The translations under genes were made by a program, and so were the position numbers. From a virus, in the UHGV virus genome UHGV-0193111: a stretch of 8,441 nt of DNA; one strand, 5' to 3'. Below the pieces are notes generated by a model. It saw only the letters and a program-made list of their open reading frames with translations. It did not search any database and was not told the DNA's origin. Of the stretch, positions 1 to 8,441 are shown in pieces (the first letter of the stretch is position 1; every line of letters starts with the position of its first letter).

Positions 1-252
1 AAAACTCAGCGTCGGCTGTGTGTCGCGCTCCTCTTCACTGGCAGGCAGAACGGGTGTGGTTTGTTCAATAAAGGCTTCCAGTTCCTGACGGAGCGCAACC
101 AAATCCACAGAACACGCTTCCAGCGCCTCCCGGGCAGATGGGTTACTGAGCAGCGCCAGTAACAAGTGCTCGACGGTCATAAACTCATGACGGTGCTCGC
201 GCGCTCTGGCGAAAGCCATATTTAAACTGAGTTCCAGTTCTTGATTGAGCAT
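1..252 (-). CDS. clpA: ATP-dependent Clp protease ATP-binding subunit ClpA, N-terminal 84 codons (gene continues beyond window start)
   Basis: Reverse-strand translation from ATG at 252-250 gives MLNQELELSLNMAFARAREHRHEFMTVEHLLLALLSNPSAREALEACSVDL..., which I recognise as the ClpA N-domain. GGAGG-type RBS upstream. Lies 30 bp downstream of clpS, as in the enterobacterial clpS-clpA operon. Absent from the ORF track because it has no in-window stop. Confidence 0.9.
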   Translation of the reverse strand, partial: MLNQELELSLNMAFARAREHRHEFMTVEHLLLALLSNPSAREALEACSVDLVALRQELEAFIEQTTPVLPASEEERDTQPTLSF

Positions 253-282
253 AGGCACCTCCCCCAATTTTTATGCCTGCAT

Positions 283-603
283 TCAGGCTTTTTCTAGCGT
301 ACACAGCAATGGATGCTCATTCTCCCTCGCGTACTTGTTCACCATCGCCACTTTGGTTTCTGCAACCTCGGCGGTAAAGACTCCGCAAATGGCCTTCCCC
401 TGGTAGTGAACAGCGAGCATCAATTGCGTTGCACGTTCTACATCATAAGAAAAGAATTTTTGTAACACGTCAATAACAAACTCCATCGGAGTGTAATCAT
501 CATTGACTAATATCACTTTATACATAGATGGCGGTTTTAGCGCGTCGCGAACTTTTTCTTCCGCCAGTTGATCAAAGTCCAGCCAGTCGTTCGTTTTACC
601 CAT
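283..603 (-). CDS. clpS: ATP-dependent Clp protease adaptor protein ClpS
   Basis: 106-aa ORF ([51 protein letters not shown]...) matches my recollection of E. coli ClpS over its full length. Correct size and position upstream of clpA. Confidence 0.95.
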
Positions 604-777
604 TGTCAGTTATCATCTTCGGTTACGGTTATCGGCAGAACGCCCTGCCGCTGACAAGAGCTTATTTGCCTGACCAATCTACTCCACATGATAGATAACT
701 ATCATTTATAACATTTCATTGATTAGTCTTTATTTTTCACTGTGTTACAAATAACAACTCTGTCAAAAACAGCGAAA

Positions 778-833
778 TTAACTACACCATTAACTACACC
801 ATTTCACGAACAATATCGAACAACCACGAACAA
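778..833. repeat. Direct-repeat cluster: tandem 13-mer TTAACTACACCAT x2 (778-803) followed by three CGAACAA copies at 10-bp phasing (807-813, 817-823, 827-833)
   Basis: Read directly from the sequence. 10-bp periodicity suggests same-face protein binding sites (regulator or recombinase arm-type sites). Function unknown. Confidence 0.5.
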
Positions 834-1264
834 AGATCAACACGCTTTAACCGTTATCATTTTCCGGCCATCCGTTATGAAGCTGGTGGATGTTCCCCGA
901 TATGGGGATCCCCACCTACCCACTCCCCCCATACCGGAATTTTTTTCCGGTTAAACGTTAATCAGGCTGGTGGGCTTTACATACCCTTGATCACGGTAAT
1001 GATGATTCAGGTGCGTACCTTTTCCCCCAGTGGGGTAAAAGCTCCAACCGTAACGATGTTCGTTGTGGTTGCCTTGATGGTCTGCGTGGTCATTATGACC
1101 ATTCAGAATTTGAAGGGTGATGTTTCCGATCTCCTCAAATTGAGGTTGCCGGAAATATCAACGGGTTAGGCCAGAGTGCAAATTTGCGCTTTGCTTTAAG
1201 TTCAGCGAGTAACCGAAGGCGTAATTCCGCCCTCGGTACTCACATATGAGAAACGATATTTCTT

Positions 1265-1430: not shown

Positions 1431-1712
1431 TTACCGCCGTAAGTGCTCCGGCTTCCTCCACTGGTAAGTATTTTTCGCGCTCTCCCTCCGTTGTTGAGAA
1501 CGGCGACGGTATGCCAGCAACTCAAGAACTCTGGTTCGTATGTTGCGCATATCCACGCCATTAAGTTCTATACCATCACGGCGCATCACCTCCGCAACAA
1601 CACGCGCATAATTTTCAGCGGTCACGCTGTCCGGCTGCATGGCCTGTTCGTCAACCTGCTGGCTGATTCCGGCAACGCGGCGGATTAATCCCAGTATTTC
1701 GGCTTCTGTCAT
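1431..1712 (-). CDS. Hypothetical protein, 93 aa, Arg-rich C-terminus (the ORF-track version extends to 1820 but would run across cosN)
   Basis: ORF-track ORF 1431..1820; I prefer the internal ATG at 1712 (MTEAEILGLIRRVAG...) because the longer form overlaps the cos site at 1768-1798. No family recognised. Confidence 0.35.
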   Translation of the reverse strand: MTEAEILGLIRRVAGISQQVDEQAMQPDSVTAENYARVVAEVMRRDGIELNGVDMRNIRTRVLELLAYRRRSQQRRESAKNTYQWRKPEHLRR

Positions 1713-1767
1713 TGTGCCCCCATCGTTCTGAAAGTCTGGTGTCGTCGGGTCCTTCCTGGAATTATGG

Positions 1768-1920
1768 CCCGTTACGGGGCGGCGACCTCGCGGTTTTTCG
1801 CTATTTATGAGCTTTTTCATGGGGGGGTGGTGGTTTTGTTGCTTGCTCTATCTCCATGAATAAAAAGGGAAAGATAACACCAACACACCAACCTGAAACC
1901 TTGACCAAGTTGGGATATTG
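1768..1920 (+). other. cos site 1: lambda-type cosN (cohesive-end sequence GGGCGGCGACCT at 1777-1788) plus a diverged cosB-like leader with tandem ACACCAAC repeat (1877-1892), directly upstream of terS
   Basis: 1768-1812 cccgttacggggcggcgacctcgcggtttttcgctatttatga is near-identical to the phage lambda left end and cosN junction as I recall it (GGGCGGCGACCTCGCGGGTTTTCGCTATTTATGA). Same position and orientation relative to the Nu1-like gene as in lambda. Confidence 0.8.
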
Positions 1921-2463
1921 ATGAAATCGCACCTGATGAACAAAAAAACCATGGCGCAAAGCTGCCGGGTAAGTGCTACAGCATTCGACAAGTGGGGAGT
2001 GACTCCCGTTGAACGTAAAGGCCGTGAGGCGTTTTATGATGTTGCCAGCGTGATAGACAATAGGGTTAACAATGCAATTAGCCAGCTTACAAACGACAAA
2101 GGCGAGATTGATGATGATGAACTCTTACGAGTCAGGATCAGATTACTGACAGCACAGGCGGAGGCGCAGGAACTTAAAAACGAGCGCGATCGCGGTGACG
2201 TGATTGATACAGAGTTTTGCATGTACGCGCTTTCAAAACTGGCGAGTCAGATTTCATCAATCATGGACAGCCTCCCGCTTACTATGCAAAGGAGCTTCCC
2301 ACACATTACCCCCGCTATGCTGGATGGGCTTAAAAGGGAAGTGGTTAAAGCCTGTAATGCCAGTGCCAGAGTTGCCGACAACCTCCCACAGATACTGGCT
2401 GATTACCTGAACGAAACAACCGGAAACGTACCGGAAAAGTTGCTACAGAAGAAAGGCGAGTAA
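1921..2463 (+). CDS. terS: Terminase small subunit, lambda Nu1-like
   Basis: Product aligns along most of its length with lambda Nu1 as I recall it (YDVASVI vs YDSAAVI; RLLTAQAEAQELKNERD vs RLTRAQADAQELKNARD; FCMYALSKLASQISSIMDSLPLTMQRSFP vs FCTFVLSRIAGEIASILDGLPLSVQRRFP; LKREVVKACN vs LKRDIIKAMN). ORF track starts at TTG 1918. First ATG is 1921; ATG 1936 (MNKK...) matches the Nu1 N-terminus MEVNKK best. Weak RBS for either. Confidence 0.85.
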   Translation: MKSHLMNKKTMAQSCRVSATAFDKWGVTPVERKGREAFYDVASVIDNRVNNAISQLTNDKGEIDDDELLRVRIRLLTAQAEAQELKNERDRGDVIDTEFCMYALSKLASQISSIMDSLPLTMQRSFPHITPAMLDGLKREVVKACNASARVADNLPQILADYLNETTGNVPEKLLQKKGE

Positions 2464-2487
2464 CAGACGCGCAATTATTGAACAAAA

Positions 2488-2663
2488 CTGAGAAACGACA
2501 TGAAAGCGTCATAAATCGCCATTTTAGATGATTACCGTGTCGTTTCTTTTTATTGTATATCTATTTAAAAACAAATAGTTATGTTCGAGAAGTACCGACA
2601 TGCTTTTTCCAGAAAAATTTTCATAAACAGATAAAAACCGCGAGGTCGCCGCCCCGTAACGGG
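2488..2663 (-). other. cos site 2 (inverted): lambda-type cosN (reverse complement of GGGCGGCGACCT at 2643-2654) with lambda-like cosB, including an inverted pair of R-site-like elements TGTCGTTTC (2538-2546) and GAAACGACA (2492-2500)
   Basis: 2633-2663 is the exact reverse complement of 1768-1798 (31 bp). The reverse complement of 2488-2640 parallels the lambda cosB region as I recall it (TTTATGAAAATTTTTCTGG; CATAACTATTTGTTTTTAAATAG; AAAAGAAACGACACGG; CATGTCGTTTCTC vs lambda TTTATGAAAATTTTCCGG; CATAACTTAATGTTTTTATTTAAAATA; AAAGGAAACGACAGG; CTCTGTCGTTTCC). Confidence 0.75.
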
Positions 2664-2686
2664 TCCATATGCCGGAAAGGACCCGT

Positions 2687-2710
2687 AAAAAAAAGCCGGA
2701 TTTCTCCGGC
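2687..2710 (-). terminator. Rho-independent terminator of the capsid operon (stem GCCGGA/TCCGGC, loop TTTC, followed on the minus-strand transcript by U8)
   Basis: Hairpin at 2695-2710 with A8 at 2687-2694 on the plus strand, immediately downstream of the 137-aa ORF stop (2717-2719). Confidence 0.6.
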
Positions 2711-2716
2711 CTTGTC

Positions 2717-3130
2717 TCAGATGGTTTTCAGTATGCGATCGATGTCGCCGTCATCGCCCTGGTTTCTGCCATCGTATGCCATGCCAGCTGATACGGCTTG
2801 CGGGCTGTGCATGTCCATAAAGTTTTCAAAGGCTGCGGTAAGCTCTGGTGCAACCTTTGGGCGCTCCTGCTCTATGGTCATGTTCAGGATTTCACGAGCA
2901 TTATCGACGCTAATACATGGCACGTTTGCCATTGCACGTAACAGCGGCTGATAGTCTTTATGCTCATGAAGCGCCATAATCGCATCAGCGCGCGGCTTGT
3001 CCTGCTCTTCCAGTTTGTTGAGTTGATATACGGCCTCGTAGGTTGATAAACCTCTGTCAGCCATTGCCCGCGCTTCTTCTTTAAATTTACTCGCCAGCGG
3101 TAGCGCCATGATGCTTTCATTCGTTGCCAT
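2717..3130 (-). CDS. Hypothetical protein, 137 aa, last gene of the capsid operon
   Basis: ORF with ATG at 3130 preceded by AGGGGGAA RBS, 12 bp after the decoration-protein stop; followed by a terminator. No family recognised; not obviously lambda FI or FII. Confidence 0.65.
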   Translation of the reverse strand: MATNESIMALPLASKFKEEARAMADRGLSTYEAVYQLNKLEEQDKPRADAIMALHEHKDYQPLLRAMANVPCISVDNAREILNMTIEQERPKVAPELTAAFENFMDMHSPQAVSAGMAYDGRNQGDDGDIDRILKTI

Positions 3131-3142
3131 CGTTCCCCCTGC

Positions 3143-3478
3143 TTATCGGGCCAGCGGCTGAACGGATACGCCGGAACCCGCAAAGGCGGCGCATTTTTTC
3201 GCATCGGTGTCGACGCTCTCAGGCCAGTTAACGGCGGCAATATTGAATATCCCCGTCTTGTAACACTGTGCTGATTTCTGCTTTGACGTGTCCACAGGAT
3301 ACGAAGTCAGATAAACAGCCTTGCCAGATTCCTGACCATCCCACGGCTTAAACTCGCCATTGTCCGCCAGCATCAGCGGGGTAAATTCCTGAATAACGCC
3401 AGCATCAGCGGCAAAATGTACCAGCGTCGTTGATACCTGCTGACTGCCTGCAAATAACTCAATGTATGGAGTGTTCAT
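3143..3478 (-). CDS. Head decoration protein, lambda gpD-like
   Basis: Product shares blocks with lambda gpD as I recall it (TPLML, WDG, YK-G-F, WPE, KK-AFAG, S-S-V) and has similar length (111 aa from ATG 3478; ORF track uses GTG 3487, 114 aa). Stop of the capsid gene lies 2 nt upstream of the GTG. Confidence 0.8.
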   Translation of the reverse strand: MNTPYIELFAGSQQVSTTLVHFAADAGVIQEFTPLMLADNGEFKPWDGQESGKAVYLTSYPVDTSKQKSAQCYKTGIFNIAAVNWPESVDTDAKKCAAFAGSGVSVQPLAR

Positions 3479-3489
3479 AGAATCCACCG

Positions 3490-4545
3490 TTAACCAATTT
3501 TGACGGTAACAAATTTGCGAATATCTGCCGGAACAGGCTGCGGTGCGCTGTGTGTCTGCACGTACTCAATCGCCGGATCGCCGTCTTCAATCCAGTTTTT
3601 CGGGTAAAACATGTTTTGCGTTGCGCCCGTTCTTACCGCTTCCTGTTCCATAATCGCACCATAGGCCACCAGCCCTTTATTGTTGGTGTTGCCCAGGACC
3701 AGCAAATCAGGCTCAAGGAAATATTTTTCTGTGCCGTCGCTGTCAGTGTATTTGCCGGAATAGACGATAAGGGCCAGATCACCAAGATAGCCTTTAAAGC
3801 TCACCACTTCTCCCAGGTTTTTACATGCCAGCTCTGCGGCGGATTCTGAACCACGGGAGAGATCGTACAGTTCACGGAATTTTTTAAAGCTGCGTAACAT
3901 GCGCCATACATCAACGCCCATAATCATGACGTTTGCGGGGCAACCTGCCTGATCTGCGTATAGCTCAATGTCATAGATTGGGTCGTGTATGTCTTTGTCC
4001 TGCTCTGACCATTTTTTACCGTCGGCCTGCTCTATGATGTTTTTTTCCGGTATCTTCCAGTCGATTTCATAGCGTTCTATGCCTTCGCCCTCAATGATGT
4101 TTTTTCCGGTCGTTATCGCATTCACCGCCATCCATTCCACGCGCGCTTTAATGGCGTTTATCTGGCGGCGCATGTTGCCAGTAATCAGGCGCATACGGCG
4201 GTAGGTAGGGTCGTTAAGCTGTGCCGGATCTTCTCCAGCCATGCGCATTATTGTTTTTAATGGATCGATTTCGTGTTTTGGCTTCATGTAGCCAGGGCGA
4301 ATAATGCTGGTTTCGTACCCTTTATCGCGCTGAACCTGGCTACCAACCATAGGCGAACAAAACGCCGACATAGTGACTTCTTCAATATCCAGGTTATCTA
4401 ACATGATGTCCTGTGTGTTGAATGTCGCCACGTTCGGGAAAAACAGCGCGGTAAACAGCGGACTGAATTTAAATTCCGCAATATCCTCGCGATTCAGGTA
4501 CGCGAAAAGCTGGTTAGTGTTAAGTGCCATTGCTTTGACTGCCAT
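3490..4545 (-). CDS. Major capsid protein, lambda gpE family
   Basis: 351-aa product shares many conserved blocks with lambda gpE as I recall it (FKF-PLF; PGY-KPKHE; DP-YRR-R; WS-RDK--DP-YDIE-YA; RSFK; GYLGD-A-VYSG-Y; LGNT--GL--YG-I; YPKNW--GDPA). ATG at 4545-4543 with GGGGGTGA RBS; start overlaps the stop of the upstream ORF (TAATG). Confidence 0.9.
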   Translation of the reverse strand: MAVKAMALNTNQLFAYLNREDIAEFKFSPLFTALFFPNVATFNTQDIMLDNLDIEEVTMSAFCSPMVGSQVQRDKGYETSIIRPGYMKPKHEIDPLKTIMRMAGEDPAQLNDPTYRRMRLITGNMRRQINAIKARVEWMAVNAITTGKNIIEGEGIERYEIDWKIPEKNIIEQADGKKWSEQDKDIHDPIYDIELYADQAGCPANVMIMGVDVWRMLRSFKKFRELYDLSRGSESAAELACKNLGEVVSFKGYLGDLALIVYSGKYTDSDGTEKYFLEPDLLVLGNTNNKGLVAYGAIMEQEAVRTGATQNMFYPKNWIEDGDPAIEYVQTHSAPQPVPADIRKFVTVKIG

Positions 4546-4952: not shown

Positions 4953-4958
4953 GGGTAC

Positions 4959-4980
4959 AAAAAGCCGGATTTTCTCCGGC
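4959..4980 (-). terminator. Rho-independent terminator after ssb (stem GCCGGA/TCCGGC, loop TTTTC, U5 on minus-strand transcript)
   Basis: Hairpin 4964-4980 with A5 at 4959-4963 on the plus strand, 9 bp downstream of the ssb stop; near-identical to the terminator at 2687-2710. Confidence 0.55.
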
Positions 4981-4988
4981 CTGTGCGT

Positions 4989-5399
4989 TCAGAACGGAAT
5001 ATCATCACCGTAGGGGTCATCGTCTCCCGCTGGTGGCTGATTACCCTGTGCGCCTGTGGTTTTGCGTCTGTTCCCGCCAGGACGTGCCGCACGGGCACTG
5101 ATTACGCTGTCTGCAATAACCTGATAACCCTGCCGCGTTTCCCCGTTCTGTCCGGTCCACTGGCTTATCTGCATCACGCCAGATATGCTGGCAACGTCGC
5201 CTTTTTGATGTTTAGCCAGGAAGTCGGCCTGCTTACCAAATGCCATCACCGATAGCCATAACGTAGCCGTTCCGTCATCTGCCTGGCTGCACGGAAGGGG
5301 GACCGCCATACGCGCCAGCGTCATCGGTGTGCCCTTGCTGGTCTGTTTTACCTGCGGGTCGTCCACCAGCCGCCCGTAAGCTGCTATCTGTGCTGTCAT
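4989..5399 (-). CDS. ssb: Single-stranded DNA-binding protein
   Basis: 136-aa product with an SSB-like OB-fold core (FGK...KGD...ISG...W...GE-R) and a Gly/Pro-rich linker ending in the acidic tail DDDPYGDDIPF, the hallmark SSB C-terminal motif. Start ATG overlaps the upstream ORF stop (ATGA). Confidence 0.85.
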   Translation of the reverse strand: MTAQIAAYGRLVDDPQVKQTSKGTPMTLARMAVPLPCSQADDGTATLWLSVMAFGKQADFLAKHQKGDVASISGVMQISQWTGQNGETRQGYQVIADSVISARAARPGGNRRKTTGAQGNQPPAGDDDPYGDDIPF

Positions 5400-5660: not shown

Positions 5661-5999
5661 TTATATATATATATAGAAACATGTGCGGGTTATGCGGGTT
5701 ATTGGGTTATCTTAGCGTGCTAACCATTTTTTATCCTTTTATATCAGTATTTTGCAAAACACCCTGTTTATTATTTGCTCACCACGTAACCCGCAAAACG
5801 CTCAAAATAACCCGCAAACGGGGTTTTTTCTGCGGGTTACGCATGACTGTCCGGTGTTACTTCAGTTATTCGCCTGCGGGTTATAATCGTGCTTTTGCGG
5901 GTTATAAATGCCCTTTTGCGGGTTACGTGCGGGTTATTGGTTTCCTTTATATTCATGCACTTAATACACTTATACACAGGATAACCCGCATAACCCGCA
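5661..5999. repeat. Putative replication origin: iteron array of 11 perfect TGCGGGTTA 9-mers (plus strand at 5684, 5693, 5831, 5875, 5896, 5917, 5928; inverted at 5787, 5808, 5982, 5991) with AT-rich tracts including (TA)n at 5661-5676
   Basis: Repeats read directly from the sequence; several pairs spaced 21 bp (5787/5808; 5875/5896/5917), tandem pairs at both edges in opposite orientation. Located immediately downstream of the primase/helicase gene, as is typical for Pri-Rep plus ori modules of phage-inducible islands. Confidence 0.75.
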
Positions 6000-6021
6000 A
6001 TTTTTTTCCTCACACAGGGGA

Positions 6022-8145
6022 TTAATCTTCATCATCAGGCTGGAACATCAGCACGTAAAAAACATGCTGCTTACCCCCAATCTTGCCCAGCGCCTTTTTT
6101 TTGTATCGGCGATCGCTTCCCTTCTCCAGCATTCCGGCAGCATCCAGGGCACGCGCAAAATGCGCCGGATTAAATCCCTTCGCTATCTCACTATCAAACA
6201 CGTGCGGGAACGTGTAATAGCGCATCTCGTCATCTTCGTTGCGAATGCTCCCTTTTCTGTATCCGGCAAGCTCTTTAATCGGTAAATCACGCTCATCTGT
6301 ATTGGGGTACGGAAGGTAGCGGCTAAACCCAAACGACGACAAAAACGCCTCAGCCTGTTCAACCATCTGTTTAAATTCCCTGTTACCCGTGCCGAACTCC
6401 TTCACCCAGGCATTAAAGTTATGCTGTATCGCGTCGCAGCATTCCTGCACGACCCAGCCAGTTACATGACCGGAAAGCACAAGCGCGGCCTCCAGTATGG
6501 CGAAACGTTCACCCACGCGGTGGACCTGCTCGCCGTAACTCTCCGGTATCAGGTTGCGCCACCGTTCGCGGCATTCCCTTACCGTGTCCTTTGCCTCCTG
6601 CTGGTGGCCTGCCAGCCATTTAACCCACTCACGACCCGCCGCCCCGTGATTTGCTGTCCAGGCATCCTTTAACGCGTCAGCATGTTCCTTACCGTTGCTG
6701 TATTCGTGAAATTTCGTGGCTTTTTCCATCGGAACGTTAAGCAGTCGGACAAGCTGCCCCGCCTTAACTTTTATCCCCTCACTTTTGAGGAATGTCTCAA
6801 CGTCCATTTCTCCGGTGCTGATTGCCACCGTTCGCCAGTGTTTGATCTCCCTGTTGCCGCCATCCTTCGCCCCCTGCAATTTCCCTGAACCGTTAAACAG
6901 CGTATAAGCAGACGTTGACACTTCCCGCGCATTTCCGGCCTGGCCTATCTCATCCAGTGGTAAAAGCCCGTCATTATGGGCCTCGGCCTCATTGGCAATA
7001 CCTAACGCCGTGCCGTACCAGGTCAGCCGCTGCGCGTCCGGCTCTCCCCATAAACTTGATGCGATGTTCTGCGTGGTGGTCTTACCTGCCGATGACTGTT
7101 CGAAAAGATGCACCCCGAAGCCGTCAGCACCCACAAGGCCAATTAAAGGCGCTGCCAGTGACGTTGCCACACCCAGCATCATTGAGGCATTACCGCCAGC
7201 CAGCCGCGCCACGCTGTCGCGCCAGCCATCCGCCGTGCCAGCCACGGAATAACCGTTAATCGCGGCGCTTTTTCCGGTAAACAGGATCGGTTTTTCAGAT
7301 TCACCAATGATCGAACCGTCCGGCATGATGTACGCGCCAAAATGCCAGCCCGTTGTTGTGCTTAACTGCCATTCCTCATGGCTTCCGCTTAACTGCATCC
7401 AGTCCGCCAGGATTGCCCTGTATTTGCCGTTGGTTGTCACGTTCAGCCCGTGATCTTTAAGTAACCGCCAGCCGTCACGGTCGCCGATACCACCACACGG
7501 GATCGCCATTGTGATGACTTCATGGTTTGCGGTTTTTTTCCAGCGCATCACGCGGTAATGCTCTTTACCGATCGTCCCCGTTCCCAGTAGTTCAAGCGGA
7601 GAACATAACCACGTCTCAGGCCGGATAATTTCGCCTGACTGCTTATCCACTTTGGGCGTTACCCAGAAAACACCATCGGCGCGACTTTCAACGCGTGGCT
7701 TTAATTCGTCATCGCTATGACTTCCGGTATCTTTTTTCTTTACCGGAAGCTCAATAACCAGACCATCAGAAAGATTCTGCCGCTCACGGGCCAGATATTC
7801 GCGCCAGTTCTCCACCTTCTGAACGTGCATTCCATCAGGGTAAAAATTTGCATCCTGTACGCCTGCCGCCGCCAGCTTCTGACCAATCGCCTTGATCATT
7901 ACTGGCTCAAGATGTCCGGCCCTGAATATGCGTACTGATTTTCGGCCTTCCGGCACAATTTGCAGCTTATCCAGTTCGGCAAGTTGTTGCTCTCCAAGCC
8001 AGACAGGAGGCACGTTATCGCCAGCCAGTCGCCCGTCCTGTTCCTGCCACTGCTTCGCATGTGCCCACGCATCACTACCCGCAAAAATGATGACTTCCGT
8101 CATTTTGTCACGTGGCTGGTGTTTTAAATTTGGCGCTTTTTTCAT
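6022..8145 (-). CDS. Replication initiator of primase/helicase type (P-loop NTPase; Pri-Rep-like); exact family not resolved
   Basis: 707 aa from ATG 8145 with GGAGAG RBS (ORF track uses GTG 8160, 712 aa). Contains a Walker A-like SSAGKTT and a Walker B-like LLPLDE motif. Large size and position directly upstream of an iteron array. Start overlaps the stop of the upstream ORF (ATGA). Confidence 0.8.
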   Translation of the reverse strand: MKKAPNLKHQPRDKMTEVIIFAGSDAWAHAKQWQEQDGRLAGDNVPPVWLGEQQLAELDKLQIVPEGRKSVRIFRAGHLEPVMIKAIGQKLAAAGVQDANFYPDGMHVQKVENWREYLARERQNLSDGLVIELPVKKKDTGSHSDDELKPRVESRADGVFWVTPKVDKQSGEIIRPETWLCSPLELLGTGTIGKEHYRVMRWKKTANHEVITMAIPCGGIGDRDGWRLLKDHGLNVTTNGKYRAILADWMQLSGSHEEWQLSTTTGWHFGAYIMPDGSIIGESEKPILFTGKSAAINGYSVAGTADGWRDSVARLAGGNASMMLGVATSLAAPLIGLVGADGFGVHLFEQSSAGKTTTQNIASSLWGEPDAQRLTWYGTALGIANEAEAHNDGLLPLDEIGQAGNAREVSTSAYTLFNGSGKLQGAKDGGNREIKHWRTVAISTGEMDVETFLKSEGIKVKAGQLVRLLNVPMEKATKFHEYSNGKEHADALKDAWTANHGAAGREWVKWLAGHQQEAKDTVRECRERWRNLIPESYGEQVHRVGERFAILEAALVLSGHVTGWVVQECCDAIQHNFNAWVKEFGTGNREFKQMVEQAEAFLSSFGFSRYLPYPNTDERDLPIKELAGYRKGSIRNEDDEMRYYTFPHVFDSEIAKGFNPAHFARALDAAGMLEKGSDRRYKKKALGKIGGKQHVFYVLMFQPDDED

Positions 8146-8441
8146 TTCTGCTCTCTCCACGCGGCAATCATGTTTTTTAGTTCCTGTAGTTTTTTATCAA
8201 CATCCATACATGACACATGGTTATTTCTGGAAAGCGGGATTTCCCGCCTGAATCTGCTAATAAAGATCTCCACGTTCAGCGAACTAAGAAATGAATAGCC
8301 ATCACGGATAAAATACACACGGTCAAACATCAGTTCTTTTACCGTTACTCTGTTACCGTTCTTATCCAGATAAATAGCGCCGGGGATAATTTGGGGGTGT
8401 GCATAACCGCTGGCAGTCAAGCCAGATAAATATGTTCTCAT
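8142..8441 (-). CDS. Hypothetical protein, at least 99 aa; may continue beyond the window end
   Basis: Open frame runs to the window edge (an ATG happens to sit at 8441-8439); stop overlaps the primase start. No family recognised; not AlpA-like. Confidence 0.45.
   Translation of the reverse strand: MRTYLSGLTASGYAHPQIIPGAIYLDKNGNRVTVKELMFDRVYFIRDGYSFLSSLNVEIFISRFRREIPLSRNNHVSCMDVDKKLQELKNMIAAWREQK

Follow-up and report, generated by a model that had tools for sequence, protein, structure and literature searches.

A putative packaging cassette with two inward-facing cos sites and a rare flipped form in an EcCICFT073-family phage-inducible chromosomal island

The virus genome UHGV-0193111 was analysed as one stretch of 8,441 nucleotides (the window), and a segment of about 0.94 kb within it is probably a packaging cassette of a phage-inducible chromosomal island (PICI) of the EcCICFT073 family. 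Two cos sites face inward across a small-terminase gene, terS. Of these, cos1 would be private to the small terminase of the island itself (TerS) and cos2 would be read by helper phages, and the window holds the cassette as a rare flipped isomer. PICIs spread virulence and defence genes among enterobacteria by hijacking lambdoid phages. The window is the distal end of such an island, next to the chromosomal gene clpS, and represents a phage satellite rather than a phage.

An exact-match search found the 31-mer CCCGTTACGGGGCGGCGACCTCGCGGTTTTT exactly twice in the window, at 1768-1798 on the plus strand and at 2633-2663 on the minus strand. No further match was present in the window even with 3 mismatches allowed, and none is expected from 200 dinucleotide-preserving shuffles. 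The two copies are exact reverse complements, as an earlier note on this DNA had reported, and the separation of 866 bp given there is replaced by a measured start-to-start distance of 865 bp. They form the cores of repeat arms of 77 nt that are 81% complementary and enclose a spacer of 786 nt, the left arm (1746-1822, plus strand) containing cos1 and the right arm (2609-2685, minus strand), recognised by repeat pairing and by its similarity to phage cos sites, containing cos2. Phages 21, PhiR5_1, 4A7, 1W and 3W have cos sequences that are 85-87% identical to the right arm. Both cores hold the 12-nt cohesive-end sequence GGGCGGCGACCT (cosN), at 1777-1788 (+) in cos1 and 2643-2654 (−) in cos2, which is identical to the cosN of lambda and phage 21. 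The cosQ sequence GGGTCCT, at 1747-1753 (+) in cos1, stands 23 nt upstream of cosN in both copies, which is the lambda spacing, and cos1 and cos2 thus both combine the 12-nt cosN with the correctly placed cosQ of a lambda-type cos. With the exact 31-mer pair, this spacing and a Nu1 homologue in between, the proposal of two inverted lambda-type cos sites around a small-terminase gene is upheld.

Collinear copies of the whole cassette (1746-2685) are present in 479 of 5426 complete Escherichia coli genomes (~9%), among them Nissle 1917, ATCC 25922 and O157:H7, while the CFT073 type with an rpp gene in place of terS was found in 64 genomes, or about 1% of complete E. coli. The figure of 479 is used here for the double-cos arrangement; the unflipped cassette as query gave 489, an upper bound, as islands with a single cos could cover ~85% of that query. 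The occurrence of the whole cassette in so many complete genomes disposes of the misassembly that had been considered earlier. An assembly artefact, whether in one of the copies or in the orientation of the segment between them, is hardly credible: inverted repeats can confuse assemblers and the source of the window is known from assembly alone, but the exact repeat of 31 bp is shorter than a sequencing read, the 479 genomes come from many laboratories, the flipped form is present in five complete genomes of two lineages, one of them with a 100% identical interior, and both sites have been genetically manipulated in CFT073.

Two functional cos sites are already known from one E. coli PICI, EcCICFT073, where they were tested by experiment (PMC6092414), and paired sites, regarded in the earlier note as a departure from the norm, are the published state for this island family (PMC6092414, PMC6739421). 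EcCICFT073 has a cos1 and a cos2 with lambda-like cosQ and cosN and divergent cosB. Each of them cloned in pET28a gave transfer by lambda and phi80, and in the island itself deletion of cos1 lowered transfer, deletion of cos2 raised it and the double deletion abolished it (PMC6092414). RppA (c1503) pairs with the helper TerS and exerts its effect via the cosB of cos1 (PMC6739421). The order at the CFT073 locus is hyp137, terminator, cos1 (+), rppA, phage-type cosB, cos2 (−), hyp94, and when checked its sites were found to be inverted, to face inward and to bracket rppA between the same two flanking genes as in the window.

EcCICFT073 and the island of the window thus belong to the same family and have the same gene order (gpE-like, gpD-like, hyp137, cassette, hyp94). 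In both, a packaging-specificity gene is enclosed by two inward-facing cos sites whose cosQ and cosN are identical, with an island-type cosB beside that gene and a phage-type cosB at the other site; the helper-like cosQ and cosN with divergent cosB of the published island recur in the window, in arms nearly identical to those of CFT073. The two differ in the gene between the sites, which encodes a Nu1-type TerS of 180 aa in the window and an Rpp of 144 aa in EcCICFT073, and in cosB2, which is of phage-21 type in the window and of Sp14 type in CFT073, and the cassette of the window is flipped relative to EcCICFT073. The CFT073 cos2 matches the cos of Sakai prophage Sp14 at ~90% identity over a stretch that takes in R3, I1, R2 and R1, whereas the EcCICFT073 papers found no phage cosB in a comparison that covered only lambda, phi80 and phi4 (PMC6092414, PMC6739421). 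The main texts of PMC6092414 and PMC6739421 do not contain 'inverted', nor does that of PMC6739421, the only one searched for it, contain 'orientation', and Murialdo and Feiss 2022 treat only cos1 (PMC9026076). Packaging from either site, as suggested in the earlier note, is plausible, each site of the window having its own cosQ-cosN-cosB and both EcCICFT073 sites supporting transfer (PMC6092414). Release of a fragment of ~0.9 kb after cutting at both sites is possible, as the geometry permits it.

A difference in cosB between the two sites, one being of island type and the other of phage-21 type, had been missed in the earlier note. When aligned on the minus strand, cos2 has a counterpart of every annotated element of the phage 21 cos, at equal spacing. 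The elements are cosQ/R4 (CGGGTCCTTTCC, 2674-2685, with GGGTCCT at 2678-2684; 12/12 identical to phage 21 R4), the I2 equivalent (2611-2625; 14/15), the R3 box (AAGCATGTCGGTACTT, 2590-2605; 14/16), I1, the equivalent of the integration host factor (IHF) site (2569-2583; 13/15), the R2 box (AAGAAACGACACGGTA, 2533-2548; 10/16), which is inverted relative to R3 and R1 and also scores as a repeat pair, and the R1 box (TTTCATGTCGTTTCTC, 2490-2505; 12/16). The full cosB layout R3-I1-R2-R1 with R2 inverted is present, and cos2 is, as judged from this alignment, a complete phage-type cos (cosQ/R4-cosN-I2-R3-I1-R2-R1) of the phage-21 type. Element order, spacing, the inverted R2 and the cosN sequence are shared with the cos of both phage 21 and lambda. 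The phage sites lead into a terminase gene, gene 1 or Nu1, whereas cos2 of the window has no terS behind it: the phage-like sequence stops after R1, where the phage terS would begin, and the island terS adjoins it there with its 3′ end, in antisense. The R2 and R1 cores also differ, being TGTCGTTTC in cos2 and TGTCGGGCC in phage 21 proper.

At cos1 only cosQ, cosN and an I2-like stretch are common with phage cos sites, and beyond these no phage boxes were found. Instead of the full R3-I1-R2-R1 layout it has a single candidate R3-equivalent, proposed from position and conservation, at bp 48-65 from cosN (GGGGTGGTGGTTTTGTTG, 1824-1841, plus strand), which is of island type and is kept in all relatives regardless of their cosB2 type. 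A single R3 has been proposed for this place (Murialdo and Feiss 2022, PMC9026076), and the R3 of phage N15 at the same position reads GAGGTTGTTGTTTAATCA. The cos of N15, with its single R3 and no IHF site (PMC9026076), resembles cos1, which is likewise without I1, R2 and R1 and which has a GGTGGTGGTTT motif at bp 48-65, where N15 carries GGTTGTTGTTT. The two are distinguished by the cohesive end, which in cos1 is that of lambda, unlike that of N15, and by the start of terS, at bp 145 in the island and at bp 89 in N15.

The gene between the sites, terS (1921-2463, plus strand), encodes an island small terminase of the Nu1 family of 180 aa, identified by BLASTP and by Pfam and PHROG profiles; possible starts of its open reading frame lie at 1918 and 1921 and its end at 2463. 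BLASTP aligned residues 6-166 of the product with lambda Nu1 at 36% identity (E 7e-34) and gave 34% identity to gp1 of phage 21, and the product matches the Pfam Phage_Nu1 profile in its C-terminal half (positions 77-162 of 164, E 3e-23) and phrog_57, small terminase, over residues 1-174 (E 8e-52). Its nearest phage relative is gp1 of N15 (45.5%), and none closer was found in 50,697 phage records. Homology extends across the N-terminal DNA-binding, central and C-terminal regions, and by these alignments the island TerS is a full-length Nu1 homologue including the C-terminal half. This half is lacking in Rpp, and the island TerS need therefore not borrow the TerS of a helper. An identity with Rpp was also tried, for the 180-aa protein and for hyp137, and rejected: there was no sequence match in the Protein Data Bank (PDB), a test which assumed that the RppC crystal structures reported in the literature are deposited there, and the 180-aa protein aligns over its full length with Nu1. 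RppA of CFT073 and the island TerS are unrelated by eye, and these comparisons gave no similarity of TerS to RppA, RppB or RppC, proteins of 144-153 aa without the C-terminus that binds the large terminase.

A comparison of 26 distinct double-cos cassettes gave a conservation per column of 94-99% for terS and cosB1 and of 69-86% for the cosB2 region, which is the most variable part. The cosB2 sequences fall into three discrete types that differ in R3, R2 and R1 as a set and keep the layout. Type I has the core ATGTCG (window and Nissle 1917), type II the core CAGATCC, and type III is that of phage 21 proper. For the R boxes of type II only partial matches of 73-80% (PhiR5_1, SerU-LTIIb and lambda) were obtained in the phage collection searched. 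The N-terminal (DNA-binding) region of TerS and the cosB1 motifs are the same across all three types. The joint change of the R boxes while TerS and cosB1 are fixed suggests that cos1 serves the island TerS and cos2 a helper terminase. We infer that TerS and cosB1 form a fixed private pair and that cosB2 tracks a partner from outside the island, the simplest candidates being the small terminases of various helpers.

Two kinds of relatives depart from this pattern. Fourteen relatives (L064-L072, L074, L077, L081, L087 and L088; at ~2856), with 84-89% identical TerS, had no match to a lambda-type cosN, and in the three inspected (L064, L077 and L081) a variant cosN, GGGCGTCAGGCG or GGGCGGCAGACG, stands in place of GGGCGGCGACCT. 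This suggests that the variant islands are adapted to helpers with other cohesive ends. In E. coli SCU-172 (L001, 14055-14652) and altogether ~14 genomes, both inverted cos sites are present with neither terS nor rpp, and only an open reading frame of 36 aa lies between them; this variant combines a TerS-type cosB1 with a cosB2 of CFT073/Sp14 type and is in the flipped orientation.

The packaging module might work as follows. Upon helper induction the island would excise and replicate, from an iteron origin 3′ of the primase gene (5677-6006). The island TerS would bind cosB1 and recruit the helper large terminase via its Nu1-like C-terminal half, cosN1 would be cut, and packaging would run from cos1 through terS. 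The unmodified terminase of the helper would start at cos2 and package the island in the opposite direction. Packaging begun at either site would end when that site recurs in the concatemer with its cosQ correctly oriented. The inversion of the sites means that neither would terminate packaging 0.87 kb after the other had started it, and that the cassette is turned round, and not lost, when the two recombine. The cost would be that cutting at both sites destroys the molecule, which may explain why transfer of EcCICFT073 was raised after deletion of cos2 with non-matching helpers.

Several observations weigh against this use of two sites. Among 80 IMG/VR loci with TerS relatives, both cos sites were present in 30, only the cos upstream of terS in 36 and a variant cosN in 14, and with approximately half of the TerS-type islands being without cos2, this site is dispensable. 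In EcCICFT073 deletion of cos2 raised the transfer by lambda and phi80, so that cos2 can be a cost; with a matching helper it would be a benefit. Independent acquisition, rather than selection, could account for the three cosB2 types, and bp 48-65 of cos1 are a candidate binding site of TerS by position and conservation. Upstream of terS no sigma-70-like promoter was found inside the cassette at the scan threshold. Finally, the only published test of a TerS-type PICI, with a marked island of strain IHE3034, gave at most 40 transductants/ml (PMC6092414). Some E. coli PICIs, such as those of IHE3034 and 18098, encode TerS and were not characterised in the 2018 paper (PMC6092414). The marker oligonucleotide of the IHE3034 island (cat insertion, Fillol-Salom 2018) matches window positions 2470-2530, from which it follows that this island carries the present cassette and that the marker sits between R1 and R2 of cosB2. 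Its position inside cosB2 may bear on the apparent non-transferability of the IHE3034 island.

The same counts can be read in another way, in which cos2 is a passive relic, a captured piece of lambdoid phage cos with no role in packaging, and only cos1 matters. The loss of cos2 from about half of the TerS-type islands, the raised rather than reduced transfer of EcCICFT073 after its deletion (PMC6092414) and the low conservation of cosB2 relative to the rest of the cassette would all agree with a relic. We nevertheless consider it unlikely, as all seven phage elements are kept at their correct spacing, the cosB2 variation is one of discrete types with intact and jointly changing R boxes and not of decay, the cloned cos2 of EcCICFT073 confers transfer, the island itself loses transfer only when both sites are deleted, and 479 genomes have retained the cassette together with cos2. 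Even less probable is that cos2 is an interference device that lures the helper terminase into unproductive cutting or binding and thereby lowers helper yield. Such a decoy would copy helper-type R boxes, as cos2 does, and would be abundant when the island replicates to high copy number, and interference with helper packaging is known for PICIs of this family (PMC6739421), but in EcCICFT073 the interference maps to RppA and not to cos2, and the cloned cos2 promotes the transfer of its DNA, which is productive packaging. A cassette in which cos1 is private and cos2 is read by helpers thus remains the preferred reading.

The orientation seen in the window, with terS against the island genes, was found in only 5 of the 479 cassette genomes, namely PM4-5 and LZHX12 in one lineage and 2014C-4587, 2013C-4282 and JNE181771 in the other. 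The remaining ~474 are not in the window arrangement, and every locus inspected has terS co-oriented with the island genes, as in Nissle 1917, TUM1886, N10 and all 80 IMG/VR loci. The order of the flanking genes is unchanged in the flipped islands, and the cassette alone has turned. The interior of the window cassette shares 100% identity with flipped PM4-5 and 99.6% with unflipped TUM1886, and the PM4-5 island has another att site and a different primase than the window island. The 2014C-4587 lineage lies at the yejO/narP site, as does the unflipped Nissle island, and its nearest cassette is another unflipped one, with 93.9% identity. Two flipped lineages with different nearest unflipped cassettes indicate that flipping has occurred at least twice. 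One TerS, WP_063081125.1, occurs both in unflipped TUM1886 (L091; mug/tRNA-Ile site) and in flipped PM4-5 (L005; mdtJ site), and its identity in two island backbones indicates that the cassette moves between backbones as a unit.

The point of exchange was located by comparison of the arms. In every case the sequence of the cosQ side of an arm stays with the flank, TTTCCGGCATATGGACC on the hyp137 side and TTCCTGGAATTATGGCC on the hyp94 side, and the cosB side travels with the cassette. The exchange point therefore lies inside the 31-bp core that contains cosN. In Nissle-type islands the arms are mosaics of both arm types, a sign of further exchanges between arms. The segment had been proposed to be invertible or recombined, and this is supported by the occurrence of both orientations against the same flanking genes and by the exchange point in the core. 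An inversion by homologous exchange in the core, perhaps aided by helper recombinases and by cos cutting, fits these data, and so does cutting of both cosN with rejoining. From the chemistry of lambda cos, the cosB side of any cos cut would bear the 5′-GGGCGGCGACCT overhang, so that the ends of a released fragment would be alike and could rejoin either way.

Whether the cassette is a programmed invertible switch was considered with this in mind. Such a switch would flip often, through terminase cutting and rejoining or through a recombinase, and each flip would change the expression of TerS or the mode of packaging. Both orientations with a precise exchange point in the cosN-containing core, the repeated exchange indicated by the mosaic Nissle-type arms, a geometry that would let the fragment rejoin either way, and a flipped terS that faces against the island operons with no promoter-like site in the cassette scan are all compatible with it. 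No invertase gene was found in the window or in full relatives, and the repeated Nissle 1917 and ATCC 25922 assemblies listed show one orientation only. An invertase-driven segment would have a serine or tyrosine invertase gene next to it and would occur in both orientations in one strain, and neither hallmark is seen here. This, together with flipped forms in only 5 of 479 genomes and 80 of 80 IMG/VR loci unflipped, argues against a fast programmed switch, and we regard one as improbable. The same small chance is given to a flip operated by the terminase, in which both cosN are cut during helper growth and the 0.87-kb fragment rejoins either way, toggling TerS and the choice of cos; if true, it would be a new recombinase-free DNA inversion and a form of bet-hedging for helper range. 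The preferred reading is a rare isomer, which would have arisen by exchange inside the 31-bp core and in which terS is antisense to the island operons. As no promoter-like site for terS was found in the cassette, the flipped form may express TerS poorly, and, speculatively, the island may then lean on cos2.

The gene set of the element and the lack of tail and lysis genes in its relatives identify it as a phage satellite of the PICI kind and not as a phage. Complete E. coli genomes contain near-identical islands of ~11 kb between clpS and cspD. At their far end these carry int, a helix-turn-helix (HTH) regulator and Icd-like genes, and they are devoid of genes for tail or lysis. This agrees with the gene order and size of PICIs (int, regulators, a primase or replication gene with the ori behind it, capsid-related genes and packaging module; ~10-12 kb, own att site, no tail or lysis genes), the int end being outside the window itself. 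Profile annotation of the window gave, all on the minus strand, a DUF927 primase (6022-8160), the single-stranded DNA-binding protein SSB (4989-5399), a lambda gpE-like major capsid protein (3490-4545) and a gpD-like decoration protein (3143-3487). The last gene of the capsid operon, hyp137 (2717-3130, minus strand; 137 aa, phrog_1999, E 1e-64), flanks the cassette in the same position in all relatives, and a terminator-like hairpin (2692-2713, minus strand) closes the operon just before cos2. On the side of the island end the cassette is flanked by hyp94 (1431-1712, minus strand), a conserved island gene of 93 aa (phrog_1561, E 4e-54), with the same position in CFT073, Nissle, N10 and PM4-5. 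The chromosomal clpS occupies positions 283-603.

Some further observations concern these surroundings. For the product of hyp137 a match was obtained to a head-maturation-protease family, in its C-terminal part (phrog_53, positions 494-567 of 583, E 1e-10). The product may be a Nu3-like scaffolding protein; the island would then possess, with its gpE-like and gpD-like genes, part of a lambda-type capsid module. Iterons of the sequence TGCGGGTTAT, direct and inverted, are clustered at 5677-6006, immediately 3′ of the DUF927 primase gene, and the replication origin of PICIs has been placed 3′ of the primase gene (Fillol-Salom 2018, PMC6092414). Window positions 1-920 are 99.5% identical to the chromosome by clpS in genomes with related islands, which places the island end (attR) near 920, and the stretch 920-1430 has no convincing gene and is patchily conserved between islands. 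The terminator-like hairpin AAAAAGCCGGATTTCTCCGGCCT occurs twice, at 2685-2712 after hyp137 and at 4955-4982 near SSB, the two copies being 79% alike.

Other known systems share some of these features. The TerS of Staphylococcus aureus pathogenicity islands (SaPIs) is likewise a satellite small terminase that redirects the large terminase of the helper to satellite DNA, and of the cos-type SaPIs SaPIbov5 and SaPIbov4 the latter has been cited as having two putative cos sites (PMC6092414). Sequences and helper phages are unrelated to those of the window, and the SaPI TerS acts in headful (pac) and not in cos packaging. The Hin, Gin, Cin and Fim switches likewise consist of a short segment between inverted repeats that is found in both orientations. 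The cassette differs from these in having no invertase gene, in that its repeats are cos sites, and in a flipped form that is rare (~1%) and stable across repeat assemblies.

A literature search returned nothing relevant on inverted cos sites or on cassette inversion in PICIs. As far as the literature was searched, the module is described here for the first time in TerS-type islands, which with 479 genomes are far more common than the CFT073 type with 64. The same holds for natural inversion isomers with the exchange point in the cosN core and, as read from sequence comparison, for a cos2 that is a complete phage-type cos with interchangeable sets of R boxes and for the apparently invariant pairing of TerS with cosB1. 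The TerS-type cassette is present in ~9% of complete E. coli genomes and the experimentally studied Rpp type in ~1%, and the findings bear on the helper range and packaging specificity of PICIs.

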